This document shows positions 19,919 to 30,113 of a stretch of 53,127 bases of DNA, one piece after another. Numbering within the stretch: the first letter of the stretch is position 1; every line of letters begins with the position of its first letter. A program made the position numbers and the translations under genes. Origin of the DNA: Eubacteriales bacterium. GTDB lineage: Bacteria > Bacillota > Clostridia > Oscillospirales > CAG-272. A model generated the notes under the pieces. That model saw only the letters and a program-made list of their open reading frames with translations. It had not been told where the DNA came from and searched no databases. The DNA lies in NCBI GenBank assembly GCA_045588165.1, contig JAZNDP010000100.1, positions 1 to 53,127 on the forward strand. Direction: 5' to 3'.

Positions 19919-21562
19919 GTGTTGACTGTTCAGGTTCGGAGATGTTCAATTCTCCACGAATTTACTGGGGAACAGCAACAACGATTTTTCGGAATTTCAC
20001 GAGATAAAACGATTCATCACGTGGATACGTTGTATTACGCAGTTAATATAAATGAGCCGGATAATATCGTCGAGCTTCAAGCGAACGACGCTCTGCCGGA
20101 GAACTTGGCAAAGTTTTTGCAAATGCTGCGAGATACAAAAGCGTATACCAGTATGAATTATTCGGACAGTATTGAGTTTGATGATGGAATGGAATACGCG
20201 AGAAAGGCGTTTTCCATATACGAGTTTTGCATCAGCAAAAATGAGTGCTTTGATATTTTCATCAGCTCTTACGTACCGACGGAGGAGACTCCCCGCATCG
20301 TCGTGCAGCTTCGTTCCAGATTTCTCGTGCTGGAGGGTGTGCGGCGAGCGGTGGAGGAATCTCTGATTTATCTTAGAAAGTTCCTTGAGCCTTATGGGCT
20401 GTTTCCCGTAAAAATAAGGGAAAATCGAATTGATTATGCGTATCATACCAATTTGATACAAAATCCGTATAAGTTTTTTTCGGATGATTGTCTTGTCAAT
20501 CATTTGAAAACGAATTTACGGTGCTTTGCAAAGTACGGAAAGATTACGGATCATGGAATTGAGCTTGAGACTCTGACGCTTGGAAATCGTAAATCCAACA
20601 ACGTTTATTTTCGTGGATATAACAAGTGTCAGGAGATCATTCGAATGAATTATAAATCCTTTTTCTTTCAGCGTTGGCGTGATCATGGCTTAATCTCCGA
20701 GTTCGATCAATACGTTTATCAGGTTGCTTACGATATGAAATCGTATAGGGCCGGCGTTCTTGTCGGACGGATCCGATGGTATCTTGAGTATGGTACCAAT
20801 GAGGATCTTAAGGAGTATCTTCGCGATGTTCTTGTGAAGAACCATATTAAGTCTGATAACTGTACTAATCTGGAGAAAGAGCTCAAGAACGTAATTCCGG
20901 AGCCGACCTTGATTTTTAACGTGGAGTTTCAGACCAAACGTAAATTTTACACTACGTGTGGTGATTGGCTTGGGCTTCACGACGTGATCGACGATCCCGT
21001 TTACCCAAGGTATACGATGGAGCCCTATCCAACAGATCCGCGAGTGGTAACTGCCGCCGCTTGTGATCCGTTGCTCCGGGATCTCTTTTTTATCCTTGCA
21101 AACGGTAAGGAGATCATGAATTATTTAACCGGCTTTGGAAATACGGTGAGCTTCGTTGAGAATCGTAATGTTTCTTTCAAGCAATTCAAAAAGGCGGGTG
21201 AGCCGTATATGAATTGGTGGAAGCGGATTCGTTCCACGCCTGTGGAATATTCTTCTCCGGAAATTATGGAGCTGTATCGGAAGTATGATGTACGCGCGTC
21301 GTTTTCAAAAACCCGTAGATTGCTATCGGGGCAGGTCGCAAGGCTTGCCATGATCGCAAATGAATCAACAGAGGAGCGGACTTTTGAGGAGGATCTGGCA
21401 GACGCGCTTTGTTATCTGAATGATAACGATTTTAAGGTCCAGTATATGGACATTCGAAAACGTAAAGCGCGGCAGCTGCGAGGGATTCTTCCCAAAGGTG
21501 AGCCGCAAGAAAAATTAAATTGTGACCGGAGCACGATTTCTCCGGAGAAAGTGAAGGAATAA
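19919..21562 (+). CDS. Rep_trans-family rolling-circle replication initiator (alternatively a MOB_T-type relaxase)
   Basis: 547 aa. ENRIDYAYH matches the RxDxAxD/H segment. LTLGNRKSNNVYFRGYNKCQEII aligns with the RepC/RepD active-site region GxRxSxRFIRIYNKKQERK as I recall it. The candidate catalytic Tyr234 is codon 20618-20620. Confidence 0.7.
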   Translation: MLTVQVRRCSILHEFTGEQQQRFFGISRDKTIHHVDTLYYAVNINEPDNIVELQANDALPENLAKFLQMLRDTKAYTSMNYSDSIEFDDGMEYARKAFSIYEFCISKNECFDIFISSYVPTEETPRIVVQLRSRFLVLEGVRRAVEESLIYLRKFLEPYGLFPVKIRENRIDYAYHTNLIQNPYKFFSDDCLVNHLKTNLRCFAKYGKITDHGIELETLTLGNRKSNNVYFRGYNKCQEIIRMNYKSFFFQRWRDHGLISEFDQYVYQVAYDMKSYRAGVLVGRIRWYLEYGTNEDLKEYLRDVLVKNHIKSDNCTNLEKELKNVIPEPTLIFNVEFQTKRKFYTTCGDWLGLHDVIDDPVYPRYTMEPYPTDPRVVTAAACDPLLRDLFFILANGKEIMNYLTGFGNTVSFVENRNVSFKQFKKAGEPYMNWWKRIRSTPVEYSSPEIMELYRKYDVRASFSKTRRLLSGQVARLAMIANESTEERTFEEDLADALCYLNDNDFKVQYMDIRKRKARQLRGILPKGEPQEKLNCDRSTISPEKVKE

Positions 21563-21564
21563 AT

Positions 21565-21891
21565 ATGAGATACGTATGTGTTGGTGTAGAAAAGAACAAG
21601 GGTGATTTTACTGATGAAGCAGGCCGCAAGGTGGAGTACGATAACGTCGTTCTTCAGTGCGTGTGCTCGGATCCTAATCCCGCGCTGAAGGCGGGTATGT
21701 ATCGTGGTTGTCGTGTCGGTGAGGTCAAAATGAAGAATGATTTTGATAACCTCGTCTATGCCGGTGACAATAAGGTTTACGCTTTCTCGGATCTGGTTGG
21801 CTGCGAGTTGGATATCGCTATCGATGCGGATAAGAAGATCCTTGGCGTAGCCGTTCTTTCGATGGATGGAATCGAAAAGCTTATTTCCTAA
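21565..21891 (+). CDS. Hypothetical 108-aa protein directly downstream of rep (positional analogue of an ssDNA-binding protein; function unproven)
   Basis: ATG lies 2 nt after the rep stop. SD GAAGGAA. No motif recognised. Confidence 0.6.
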   Translation: MRYVCVGVEKNKGDFTDEAGRKVEYDNVVLQCVCSDPNPALKAGMYRGCRVGEVKMKNDFDNLVYAGDNKVYAFSDLVGCELDIAIDADKKILGVAVLSMDGIEKLIS

Positions 21892-22039
21892 GCTCTGTCC
21901 CGGTTGCGGGAAGCTGCTTCTCAAATATCGTCCGGGTGGTAGAGCCGAGCTTTTGCTCTGGTGTCGCCATTGCCGGGCCGAGGTTCCCGTAATAATTCGT
22001 CCGGAGGACGAAAACAAAAATAAAAACGAAAAAAAATAA
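21866..22039 (+). CDS. 57-aa Com-like zinc-ribbon protein (below the track size cutoff)
   Basis: MESKSLFPKLCPGCGKLLLKYRPGGRAELLLWCRHCRAEVPVIIRPEDENKNKNEKK. The CPxCGKLL...C.HC pattern resembles Mu Com-type zinc ribbons. It overlaps the previous ORF by 26 nt and has no clear SD. Confidence 0.4.
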   Translation: MESKSLFPKLCPGCGKLLLKYRPGGRAELLLWCRHCRAEVPVIIRPEDENKNKNEKK

Positions 22040-22045
22040 AATCTT

Positions 22046-22091
22046 GAGCCATTGAGCCGAATAAAGAAATTCGTCTCGGTGGCTCTTTTTC
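22046..22091 (+). terminator. Rho-independent terminator between the replication module and the membrane-protein module
   Basis: GAGCCA..GAG.CGA / TCG.CTC..TGGCTC stem (22046-22085) followed by TTTTT (22086-22090). Only 16 nt separate it from the next start codon. Confidence 0.6.
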
Positions 22092-22107
22092 ATGAAAGGA
22101 AAAAGTT

Positions 22108-29128: not shown

Positions 29129-29156
29129 GTTTTTGAAAAAATGAAAGGAAAAAATT

Positions 29157-29654
29157 ATGAAAAAATTTGTTGTAGGTATTTGCATTTTTTTGGTATGCGT
29201 TCTTGTTCTCGGTCTTGGTGCGAAGACGATCTTTAAACAGGAACGAAATTCGGACAATCTGATCAAGGTAGACGATAATTACGTTGAGACACAGAACACG
29301 TATCGCGGTGTCAATGTAAGGGTTGCTGAGGACGGTACGATTAAACTGTTCGGCAAAGCTACTTCTGATTACGTTCTTGACGTTGCGACTGTTATCCTTG
29401 AACCGGGTAAGTATACTTTGTCCGGTTTGGATAATCCTGATTTGAATATGTGTTACCTTGAGCTTATGTATGGTGAAGAGCATGTAGTTGCTAATACGGA
29501 TATTGCCGTTGTTGAAGTAACAGAAACTACTGAATGTCTTGTTCGTATTATCTGGAATGAGGGTATGGAGTTTAGCAAGTACGATTTCATGACATTTTTT
29601 GAAGTTCAGCCTGTTCTTGTAAAGGGTGAGACTGCAGGAAGCTTCTATAAGTAA
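29157..29654 (+). CDS. N-terminally membrane-anchored protein, paralog B (of 22108..22629)
   Basis: See paralog A. Roughly 45% identity by eye over the ectodomain. The upstream leader (atgaaaggaaaaaRttatg) is also shared. Confidence 0.8.
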   Translation: MKKFVVGICIFLVCVLVLGLGAKTIFKQERNSDNLIKVDDNYVETQNTYRGVNVRVAEDGTIKLFGKATSDYVLDVATVILEPGKYTLSGLDNPDLNMCYLELMYGEEHVVANTDIAVVEVTETTECLVRIIWNEGMEFSKYDFMTFFEVQPVLVKGETAGSFYK

Positions 29655-29659
29655 TCTGA

Positions 29660-29971
29660 ATGGAGCTATCCCAAAAGAATTTCCTCTTAAAGGAACGGGA
29701 AAAGAGTCTTCGTGAGAAGAAGTACTTTTATGCCCATGAATTTACCCTTGCCTTGTGTCAAGAGTTCTTTGACGAGCTCCTCCGCGCTGTTTGTGAACCT
29801 TCAGCTCATGACCCCGAGCTGAAGGAAGTGGAGGAGACGATTGAGTATGGATACGAGGAGCATCTGCTTGTCTTGTCACAATATAATTTTCTGAAGAAGA
29901 TGATTCTTCGGAAGAGAAAAGCAAAATCTTTCTTAGAGAGGCTTGACAAGGGTAGGACAGTTATGTTATAA
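29660..29971 (+). CDS. Hypothetical protein
   Basis: 103-aa ORF with no clear SD. Its 3' end contains a strong promoter-like sequence. Confidence 0.35.
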   Translation: MELSQKNFLLKEREKSLREKKYFYAHEFTLALCQEFFDELLRAVCEPSAHDPELKEVEETIEYGYEEHLLVLSQYNFLKKMILRKRKAKSFLERLDKGRTVML

Positions 29972-29972
29972 T
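29943..29972 (+). promoter_or_regulatory. Strong sigma-A-type promoter facing the right-hand non-coding arm
   Basis: TTGACA (29943-48), 18-nt spacer, TGtTATAAT (TG 29964-65, TATAAT 29967-72). Confidence 0.55.
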
Positions 29973-29989
29973 TATAACTACCCTAAGTA

Positions 29990-30113
29990 GAAGGGGGTTA
30001 TCTGGTGATGACCAGCATTGCGATGATATCACAAATGTGGCGAGCATATGTGTTCATCATGATATGAGCGATGTAGCGAATCATCAGATCACCCCCTTCC
30101 TTTTTGTGTTTTT
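29990..30113 (+). other. 111-nt imperfect palindrome followed by a U-tract (candidate sRNA, type-I-toxin-like unit, single-strand origin or packaging hairpin)
   Basis: Arms GAAGGGGGTTATCTGGTGATGA (29990-30011) and TCATCAGATCACCCCCTTCC (30081-30100), then TTTTTGTGTTTTT (30101-13). SD-like GAAGGGGG occurs on both strands, with a 19-aa ORF (plus strand, 30008-30067) and a 28-aa ORF (minus strand). Confidence 0.7.

Follow-up and report, generated by a model that had tools for sequence, protein, structure and literature searches.

The stretch of DNA analysed here, hereafter the window, is a contig of 53,127 nucleotides (JAZNDP010000100.1, assembly GCA_045588165.1) from a Eubacteriales bacterium of the class Clostridia (Oscillospirales). 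It contains an integrated element of about 18.3 kb, the central part of which (19919-30113) had been described in a sequence-only reading as lacking tailed-phage and type IV secretion system (T4SS) genes, and as either collinear with filamentous, inovirus-like phages or an integrative element of a new class that uses rolling-circle replication (RCR). At its centre is a block of genes for transmembrane (TM), surface and secreted proteins around a membrane-bound nucleoside triphosphatase (NTPase), and a large family of related elements shares this block. Its genes are as follows (lengths in amino acids, aa; ORF, open reading frame).

22108-22629, + strand: 173-aa protein, N-anchored by a TM segment, with a beta-rich ectodomain; paralogue of the protein at 29157-29654
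22695-23312, + strand: 205-aa N-anchored protein whose linker is a G/T/D/S/N repeat; positional analogues are the family proteins cl3 and cl4
23324-25411, + strand: 695-aa spike-like type-I membrane protein, core family gene 2; 230 homologues
25356-25592, + strand: small single-TM protein with an acidic C-terminal tail; ORF of 78 aa, or 63 aa from an internal Met
25608-26714, + strand: 368-aa secreted protein with a signal peptide; accessory, unconserved in 85 related loci
26758-26853, + strand: 31-aa TM micro-protein, conserved partner of the NTPase; analogues in the family
26855-29128, + strand: 757-aa membrane P-loop NTPase, hallmark of the family (Walker A, alignment, model)
29157-29654, + strand: 165-aa N-anchored protein, paralogue of the 173-aa protein
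29660-29971, + strand: 103-aa protein (ORF call)

All genes of this module lie on one strand, and each ORF named in the sequence-only reading was found on the + strand where that reading had placed it. The genes of the region are real; homologues of the NTPase and of the 695-aa protein number in the hundreds and keep their synteny. When the module proteins were scanned against Pfam, PHROGs and NCBIfam, none had a significant match; no terminase, portal, capsid, tail, holin or endolysin family was found among them, nor any VirB4, VirD4, FtsK or relaxase family. The absence of tailed-phage and T4SS genes thus holds in all three libraries.

The 695-aa protein has the topology that had been likened to g3p-type adsorption proteins, with a signal peptide, a C-terminal TM segment and a charged tail, though kinship with g3p is not backed by homology. 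In its AlphaFold2 (AF2) model (pLDDT 86), the ectodomain is beta-rich, and there are three helices: a stalk, a TM and a cytoplasmic one. Foldseek comparison of the model with BFVD returned no viral structural neighbour (best E 0.017, probability 0.16), and tblastn gave no match in phages. The NTPase is the other module protein that was modelled, and neither model is capsid-like; the 173-, 205- and 368-aa proteins, together with a 108-aa protein encoded upstream of the block, may contain a cryptic capsid or VirB8-like fold.

The paralogy proposed for the 165- and 173-aa proteins is confirmed by 49% identity (E 3e-52). Proteins cl3 and cl4, analogues by position of the 205-aa protein, have an N-terminal TM segment and a Big_2-like domain. 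Short DNA repeats in tandem (GGTACCGACAGCGGTAC-like units) at 22809-22910 encode the linker of the 205-aa protein itself and are a likely site of length variation. At the end of the block, the gene for the 31-aa peptide stops one base ahead of the NTPase start.

The NTPase has a basic N-terminus, then a polytopic helical membrane domain of about 310 aa, then the P-loop domain. That the TM region lies N-terminal to the P-loop, as had been noticed before, is evident from the sequence as well as from the AF2 model (pLDDT 85), in which a polytopic helical domain precedes the P-loop domain; the two together place about 6-7 hydrophobic helices in the N-terminal 310 aa. The Walker A motif is GSMGTGKT (K334) and the putative Walker B motif ends in VIVCTE (E526). 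Across an alignment of 56 family members, K334, E526, R562-H563 and Q580-R581 are invariant. The window protein begins with a 35-aa tail rich in K and R. Past the ATPase core, residues ~612-640 (28690-28790) are very hydrophobic and aromatic-rich (LPYCILPWIYMYMFIPAYSKYY) and helical in the model; this segment may be an extra membrane-embedded hairpin, as in KAP-type NTPases.

Database searches place the NTPase among P-loop proteins in general. When the 56 members were scanned singly against Pfam, the generic families AAA_25, AAA_16 and AAA_22 came out on top. Zot (PF05707) was not the closest family, being matched by 2 of the 56 members at E 0.18, and FtsK_SpoIIIE, VirB4, VirD4, TraG and relaxase families were absent among the 25 most-matched of the 49 Pfam families. 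PHROGs returned PhoH-like or generic ATPase families only, NCBIfam gave no assignment, and a profile search of PDB sequences found nothing beyond Walker-A-level matches. With the full-length model as query, the best Foldseek match in PDB had an E of 0.96; the matches were generic RecA, AAA and DnaB folds, and no pI, Zot, FtsK or HerA structure was among them. The only BFVD match was an unnamed viral protein of 269 aa (A0A894JLK1, E 7.7e-4).

Profile-sequence and profile-profile comparisons of the ATPase domain were made with hhalign, with a control set of 60 Walker-A proteins, unrelated and taken from the same loci. The lowest P among the viral ATPases tested was for ORF2 of a Spiroplasma plectrovirus, SpV1 (3.9e-4 alone, 1.6e-4 with the family profile), followed by M13 pI (5.3e-3), Orf8 of the inovirus B5 (9.8e-3), ORF3 of the plasmavirus L2 (0.17-0.39) and VP8 of the pleolipovirus HRPV-1 (0.23). 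Nine of the 60 control proteins also fell below 1e-3, the best at 2.4e-4. Since unrelated P-loop proteins score in the same range, the pI signal of the NTPase is not specific. A relationship to plectrovirus ORF2 (hhalign probability 36-50%) was considered and dropped because control scores were equal and confident alignment was confined to the Walker A region. Neither Zot/pI nor FtsK/HerA, the groups to which the sequence-only reading had looked, thus has specific similarity to the protein by fold or profile. The 757-aa NTPase is not demonstrably Zot/pI; it may have a remote FtsK/SpoIIIE (TraB) relationship.

By eye, an R-H...Q pattern follows Walker B in L2 ORF3, SpV1 ORF2, M13 pI and the window NTPase, a resemblance that is not statistically supported. 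L2 ORF3 (2278-3216 of the L2 genome, locus L086) is annotated as "unknown" and is by sequence a P-loop protein with an N-terminal TM segment (GGGKS, LILDEF, LLRHQG). The plectrovirus pI-like ATPase, SpV1 ORF2, is encoded at 7492-232 of SpV1-R8A2B (locus L098). Neither L2 ORF3 nor the close homologues of SpV1 ORF2 have a significant Pfam domain.

Of the 60 close homologues of the NTPase none has a name, and no publication describing this family was found in the literature. Among 1.84 billion representative sequences there are at least 1,255 clusters at 50% identity, all of ~700-850 aa. At least 309 matches were confirmed in GTDB genomes (one per species), mostly from gut Clostridia (Christensenellaceae, Oscillospiraceae, Gallimonas); Erysipelotrichaceae and wall-less lineages (Anaeroplasmataceae, Onthoplasma) account for some. 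More than 336 further matches are on metagenome contigs, chiefly from the human gut, where the sequence-only reading had suggested that the same gene set might occur. Viral collections hold few members: two contigs in IMG/VR and, among GenBank phages, one unverified 57-kb "Bacteriophage sp." scaffold. There was no match among the 72,556 plasmids of PLSDB. Several Christensenellaceae genomes carry two family members each (L036/L079, L048/L078 and L010/L039, the last pair on one contig, CALWKW010000002.1), and poly-lysogeny or paralogous elements are therefore common.

The conserved core was defined by clustering the ORFs of 85 related loci. The NTPase is present in 86 of 86 loci, and a spike in 64, of which 40 have the 695-aa type and 24 a shorter 470-aa type (range 470-760 aa). 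In 71 of 80 loci, a TM peptide of 28-47 aa is encoded directly upstream of the NTPase, with the consensus MKxxKRILAV..LL.V..L..GYL.YTG, an N-terminal flank of net charge ~+3 and, in 49 of 66 peptides, the motif [GS]Yxx[YFH]T; it is translationally coupled to the NTPase. The core also includes the N-anchored ectodomain proteins cl3 and cl4, with their Big_2-like domains, and cl9. Core genes are in fixed order, in most members spike, micro-TM peptide, NTPase and replication protein (Rep).

The genes around the core vary. Directly after the NTPase, 52 loci encode a G2P-type HUH Rep (Pfam REP_ORF2-G2P, 1.9e-9); other members have a Rep_OBD protein with an S3H helicase, an HTH_36/DnaD-like initiator or, as in the window, a plasmid-type Rep. 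Serine, tyrosine and rve integrases all occur. The family is thus defined by its membrane export/morphogenesis module and not by its replication or integration genes.

Some members were recovered as closed circles. One circle (L046) has 13,013 bp with a 141-nt terminal overlap, and two (L093 and L094) have 11,984 bp with a 30-nt overlap, are circular permutations of one another and come from independent sequencing runs. The 11,984-bp circle has no integrase. Its spike was found on 13 contigs (6 places listed), three of which, of ~12.0 kb, carry the same genome. Eighty further metagenome loci, many of them partial ranges, showed no terminal overlaps. Between the spike and the micro-peptide/NTPase pair, the 11,984-bp circle (L093, 5189-5716) encodes an extremely lysine-rich protein of 175 aa, a candidate DNA-condensing nucleoprotein.

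A conserved membrane block with a single motor ATPase, combined with swapped replicons and integrases and with both integrated and circular forms, points to a propagation module, for virions or for transfer. The block could instead be cargo (a secretion ATPase with its substrates, or superinfection exclusion or defence) on a non-autonomous satellite ("hitcher") or integrative plasmid that spreads via helper phages or conjugative elements. An integrase, a repressor switch and a Rep within 12-18 kb do give the elements the size and layout of phage satellites, and no transfer or virion function can be assigned to any module gene. We nevertheless regard such an element as improbable, and the cargo role of its block as equally so. 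The block alone is conserved across members with different Rep and integration genes and makes up most of the genome, which argues for a propagation module and against cargo; the 12-kb circles are almost wholly membrane block and replicon, and no capsid-redirecting, small-terminase or packaging-interference genes were recognised.

In the window, replication genes precede the membrane block and a non-coding arm follows it.

19919-21562, + strand: 547-aa replication initiator, plasmid-type, possibly Rep_trans-like; plasmid homologues
21565-21891, + strand: 108-aa protein in the position of a single-stranded DNA (ssDNA)-binding protein; no family match
21866-22039, + strand: 57-aa zinc-ribbon protein (CxxC...CxxC, Com-like); weak matches
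29943-30177, + strand: promoter and two long hairpins (sigma-70 consensus, fold scores)

The 547-aa initiator is homologous to proteins of 6.5-6.8-kb Clostridioides difficile plasmids (tblastn 6e-58) and to a "replication initiation protein" of a Bacillus plasmid (hhalign 94.8%, 5.5e-8), in which NRIDxAxH, RxYNKxxE and NVEF line up with it as motifs. It had been called a Rep_trans protein, and NRIDYAYH and FRGYNKCQE do resemble Rep_trans motifs. It is a plasmid-type replication initiator, though Pfam does not back the Rep_trans call: the window protein has no Pfam match at E<=10, hence none to Rep_trans (PF02486), which two of its four closest homologues match weakly (E 0.058), and it has no match among PDB Rep structures. 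It is probably an initiator of the rolling-circle, Rep_trans/G2P-like kind. The C. difficile homologues are 29-30% identical to it over ~90% of its length and belong to small cryptic plasmids typed as non-mobilizable; one, at 1750-3168 of pCd1_4 (6,830 bp, locus L183), is annotated as "hypothetical" and is the probable Rep gene of those plasmids.

The 108-aa protein has no match in Pfam, PHROGs or NCBIfam. It and its positional analogue cl6 were considered as gV-like ssDNA-binding proteins; searches give this no support, and cl6 has no similarity to M13 gV. The zinc ribbon followed by a terminator that had been described before is present, as the 57-aa ORF and an imperfect hairpin with T5 at ~22045-22098, while the family matches of the protein are weak (Pfam DZR_2 2.9e-4, PHROG "translational regulator" 5.8e-3, both under curated cut-offs).

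The hairpin-rich non-coding arm is also borne out: two long hairpins at 29990-30177 have a computed ssDNA folding energy of -44.4 kcal/mol (z -6.7). They follow a sigma-70 promoter at 29943-29972 (TTGACA-18-TATAAT with extended TG, 12/12 match), which aims into a ~110-nt stem-loop ending in a T-run (29943-30116) and folding as RNA at -51.5 kcal/mol (z -4.6). No Rfam family matches the arm or the putative RNA, and sequence-level conservation of the arm was not found among related loci. The arm is a candidate single-strand origin, packaging signal or ~130-nt structured RNA, and the stem-loop could be an unannotated small RNA of ~130 nt instead of or besides an ssDNA origin.

Base composition differs between the two strands of the element. 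At four-fold degenerate sites of + strand genes the frequencies are T.42, A.16, G.25 and C.17, and minus-strand genes of the element are biased in the complementary way; the bias is therefore a property of the strand, not of the codons. M13 has a similar T excess, whereas L2, a plasmavirus with double-stranded DNA (dsDNA), has none. Rolling-circle-type Reps and strand bias are indirect hints of an ssDNA stage, and the only ones of circular ssDNA packed in a filament.

ORF and junction analysis places the insert from ~12.9 to ~31.24 kb, larger than the region 19919-30113 and in agreement with the 18.3-kb size given earlier. GC content is 0.37-0.48 across ~13-30 kb, compared with 0.50-0.59 in the flanks. 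The insert splits a host gene for a P-type cation ATPase: by Pfam, 11956-12918 encodes the N-terminal third (Cation_ATPase_N, E1-E2_ATPase) and an ORF at 31244-32998 the rest (Hydrolase, Cation_ATPase_C). The break point is the conserved TM4 "PEGL" motif, with an imperfect repeat on both sides. Features of the insert outside the region treated above are:

12895-12937, strand not applicable: left junction (attL region); the host ATPase frame stops at 12918, ending ...VVVAVPDGIAYYN*
12938-14329, - strand: integrase, a large serine recombinase of 463 aa; Resolvase 5.6e-31, Recombinase 2.6e-8, Zn_ribbon_recom 9.5e-10
14818-15441, + strand: ImmA/IrrE-type metalloprotease, 207 aa; Peptidase_M78 4.4e-12
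15485-15904, - strand: XRE-family repressor, 139 aa; HTH_3 9.4e-16
16044-16274, + strand: Cro-like HTH protein, 76 aa, opening the rightward operon; HTH_3 1.7e-10
16275-19642, + strand: early region of small genes (ORF calls)
19124-19642, + strand: DUF3850 (ASCH-like) protein; DUF3850 is also found in a relative (L002)
30186-31240, strand not applicable: right arm of the insert, with host-like GC (0.50-0.53)
30342-30815, + strand: 157-aa ORF in the right arm
30846-31151, - strand: DUF6514 gene in the right arm
~31215-31244, strand not applicable: right junction; the ATPase frame picks up again at ...ALPEGLPMMIAVV

The serine integrase and ImmA/XRE switch of the sequence-only reading are both backed by these Pfam matches, and the integrase has all three domains of a large serine recombinase (Resolvase, Recombinase and Zn_ribbon_recom). 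A strong promoter-like site (15992-16020, 11/12 promoter match) lies ahead of the Cro-like gene. The truncated N-terminal part of the ATPase gains a short in-frame tail, DGIAYYN*, from the element. Excision should restore the P-type ATPase pump, and lysogeny may switch off an ion transporter; insertion in the PEGL motif offers a simple excision assay. A tRNA-associated att site was ruled out, as no tRNA genes were found. No hairpin of the element is more stable than the one at 30740-30839 in the right arm (-40 kcal/mol); this arm may be cargo, or what is left of a second insertion. In the host flank, at 6401-6550 on the - strand, there is a glmS ribozyme/riboswitch (Rfam RF00234, 46 bits, over the gathering score).

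The reading we favour, with slightly less than even confidence, is that the element represents a new lineage of membrane-extruded, virus-like elements from gut Bacillota, with temperate or episomal members of 12-18 kb. A little more tentatively, the NTPase-spike-micropeptide block can be read as the morphogenesis module of an unrecognised and very common lineage of non-tailed viruses. Virions of such a lineage would, to the same tentative degree, be assembled at the membrane and released through it, as filaments or as lipid-containing pleomorphic particles; their proteins would be unrelated to those of Inoviridae, Plectroviridae, Plasmaviridae and Pleolipoviridae, and their hosts would be gut Clostridia and wall-less relatives, both with that same reserve.

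A possible cycle can be proposed for the element on these terms. Judging from the roles of their families, the ImmA protease would inactivate the XRE repressor, after which the serine integrase would excise the 18.3-kb circle and restore the ATPase gene, as the split gene suggests. The 547-aa initiator would then replicate the circle, probably by rolling circle, giving G+T-rich + single strands; the relatives of the Rep and the strand bias are the basis for this step. Topology, gene order and family-wide conservation suggest that the DNA would be passed to the membrane NTPase and leave the cell by non-lytic release in a particle of membrane-inserted proteins. By topology and gene order, the micro-peptide and small TM proteins may serve as repeated units of a coat or of assembly, with the 695-aa protein acting in adsorption or entry.

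Several observations weigh against this interpretation. No module protein has detectable sequence or fold similarity to virion or morphogenesis proteins, the family is almost absent from viral collections (the two IMG/VR contigs and the one GenBank scaffold), and no evidence was found of element DNA inside particles. Most hosts are thick-walled, and no wall hydrolase was recognised. As to an ssDNA stage, the circular L093 is without a recognisable rolling-circle nuclease, the ssDNA-binding role of the 108-aa protein is backed by no search, and genes in the host flank have GC skew of the same sign, so that only the T>A bias is specific to the element.

If the block does build a particle, hundreds of gut Firmicute species carry chronic, non-lytic viruses unseen by virome pipelines, and estimates of lysogeny, horizontal gene flow and gut "viral dark matter" would change. 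Present tools for detecting viruses would miss the lineage, which would be the bacterial counterpart of the pleolipovirus strategy and would have independently evolved a new way of getting DNA out through a monoderm envelope. Should the block mediate cell-to-cell transfer instead, Clostridia would have in it a new, minimal system of conjugation. The NTPase (700-850 aa) and its ~30-aa partner peptide form in any case a well-defined, unannotated family that can be used as a marker gene.

Transfer between cells would make the element an analogue of the actinomycete integrative and conjugative elements (AICEs), with the NTPase as DNA translocase and the Rep (Rep_trans/MOB_T or HUH) as relaxase. 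Shared with AICEs, which use TraB/FtsK-like ATPases, are the size, an integrase, a rolling-circle-type Rep, small membrane proteins and a sole membrane-anchored ATPase. With its P-loop motor behind an N-terminal membrane domain, the NTPase resembles FtsK/TraB/TcpA-type translocases in topology, some of its cytoplasmic segments are basic, and the family is mostly chromosomally integrated and nearly missing from viral collections. ImmA/XRE switches and integrases of the serine or tyrosine type are likewise typical of ICEs (integrative and conjugative elements). The spike and N-anchored proteins would serve cell-cell contact or surface exclusion, and surface proteins with Ig-like domains do fit an adhesin role. 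Against these points, FtsK_SpoIIIE, VirB4, VirD4, TraG and relaxase are lacking among the listed matches of the 56 NTPases and among the module proteins, none of the 72,556 plasmids matched, integrase-free 12-kb circles repeatedly assemble closed in several samples, and L093 is without any nickase. G2P-type Reps are moreover named, in their Pfam description, for the gene II/ORF2 replication proteins of small ssDNA phages.

Library scans of the module returned none of the VirB4-like, VirD4/TcpA-like, VirB6-like and wall hydrolase genes of the Firmicute ICE set. The AICE-like alternative of the sequence-only reading thus keeps its layout, with a single membrane ATPase, and loses its signature, as the element has no FtsK_SpoIIIE among the listed Pfam families; it differs from AICEs further in its large type-I spike. 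AICE-type elements are not known from Clostridia. Overall we consider a conjugation-like element unlikely, if somewhat less so than a satellite, and the roles it gives to the surface proteins share that standing.

The membrane-extruded virus that we favour has its nearest parallels among inoviruses, and the element could itself be a true, extremely divergent member of Tubulavirales (inovirus/plectrovirus lineage) that forms an ssDNA filament. The NTPase would then be an "atypical" pI/Zot, the micro-TM or 63-aa protein the major coat and the 695-aa protein a g3p. In Propionibacterium phage B5, a Gram-positive inovirus (Paulinoviridae), the order Orf6 (pIII-like), Orf7 (small TM), Orf8 (pI) and Orf9 (Rep) is identical to the spike, micro-TM, NTPase and Rep of the family, a closer parallel than Ff. 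Likenesses to B5 extend to one-strand genes, a non-lytic-looking gene set, a P-loop ATPase, an HUH Rep and a spike-like protein with a signal peptide and C-terminal TM segment; B5-type inoviruses as a group, among them Firmicute inoviruses of the pig and human gut, also share short single-TM proteins, exchangeable replication and integration modules and gut Clostridia as hosts. G2P-type Reps occur in most family members, and the + strand is T-rich as in M13. According to Roux et al. (PMC6813254), inoviruses freely exchange RCR genes and serine and tyrosine recombinases, and 30% of their species have a pI with an N-terminal TM domain. Firmicute inoviruses, with gut Clostridia as hosts, are common in gut viromes (PMC10061712, PMC9723715).

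The differences are substantial. Roux et al. take a protein as pI-like when its closest domain is Zot and it has 1-2 TM domains (PMC6813254). Zot is not the closest Pfam family of the NTPase, which has ~6-7 TM helices; single-TM proteins of 30-90 aa are present (31 aa and 63 aa), their structural role putative. Neither Foldseek against PDB nor hhalign against three pI types separates the NTPase from unrelated P-loop proteins, whereas known gut Firmicute inoviruses retain a recognisable Zot or B5-type gpI (PMC10061712, PMC9723715). No protein has sequence or profile similarity to B5, the P for Orf8 being inside the control range. The family NTPase is 2-2.5x longer than that of B5, with a polytopic N-terminal membrane domain, and B5-type genomes have 5-8 kb compared with 12-18 kb. 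The family also has several large N-anchored ectodomain proteins without inovirus counterpart and no conventional-looking major coat protein; the N-terminus of the micro-peptide is basic, the inverse of known coat proteins, and one circular member lacks a rolling-circle Rep. We therefore think descent from inoviruses improbable, along with the coat, pI and g3p roles that it implies.

Among Plectroviridae, ORF2 of SpV1-R8A2B (an "atypical" pI) has its TM helices N-terminal to Walker A, as does the window NTPase, with a similar motif (GKLGTGKT vs. GSMGTGKT) and, by eye, R-H...Q-R after Walker B. It gave the best P among the reference viral ATPases tested, yet was matched by unrelated P-loop proteins, and it has 337 aa and 2 TM helices; no other gene was found in common with the family. 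The inovirus reading draws only on gene order and membrane topology: the parallel with Ff in these two respects stands, and every kinship test failed.

For the plasmavirus/pleolipovirus alternative that had also been raised, collinearity with HRPV-1, and roughly with L2, was found, without homology. L2 (Plasmaviridae) resembles the family in its size (~12 kb), temperate lifestyle and one-strand genes, and in its layout, with the multi-TM ORF12, the 738-aa envelope precursor ORF13 with a signal peptide, and ORF14 with a signal peptide and C-terminal anchor; ORF3 is by sequence an N-terminal-TM P-loop protein like the window NTPase. Some family hosts are wall-less relatives (Anaeroplasmataceae, Onthoplasma). 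Kinship with plasmaviruses was rejected: when L2 proteins were compared with 1,435 ORFs of related loci (phmmer), only the ORF5 integrase matched, so that homology is limited to the tyrosine integrases of some members. L2 has no strand bias, and it replicates bidirectionally as dsDNA (PMC12662186).

HRPV-1 (Halorubrum pleomorphic virus 1, Pleolipoviridae) is collinear as well, with Rep, small protein, membrane protein, spike, small TM ORF, membrane ORFs and NTPase in order, and its spike has a signal peptide and C-terminal anchor like that of the window. According to PMC5867852, pleolipoviruses keep one morphogenesis block while replication modules and genome type differ; the family likewise combines a conserved block with varied replication modules, and temperate pleolipoviruses exist. 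Their hosts are archaea, however, and VP8 has no membrane domain of its own. Kinship was rejected here too, as comparisons of VP3, VP4, ORF6, ORF7 and VP8 with the module gave hhalign P of 0.1-0.6 (0.11 for the spike and VP4). Since HRPV-1, and roughly L2, are likewise collinear with the element, without homology, the label inovirus is less apt than a new class of RCR integrative element, the second option of the sequence-only reading and the one closer to the evidence. Detectably a member of neither group, the element on our best reading works like an inovirus or a pleolipovirus.

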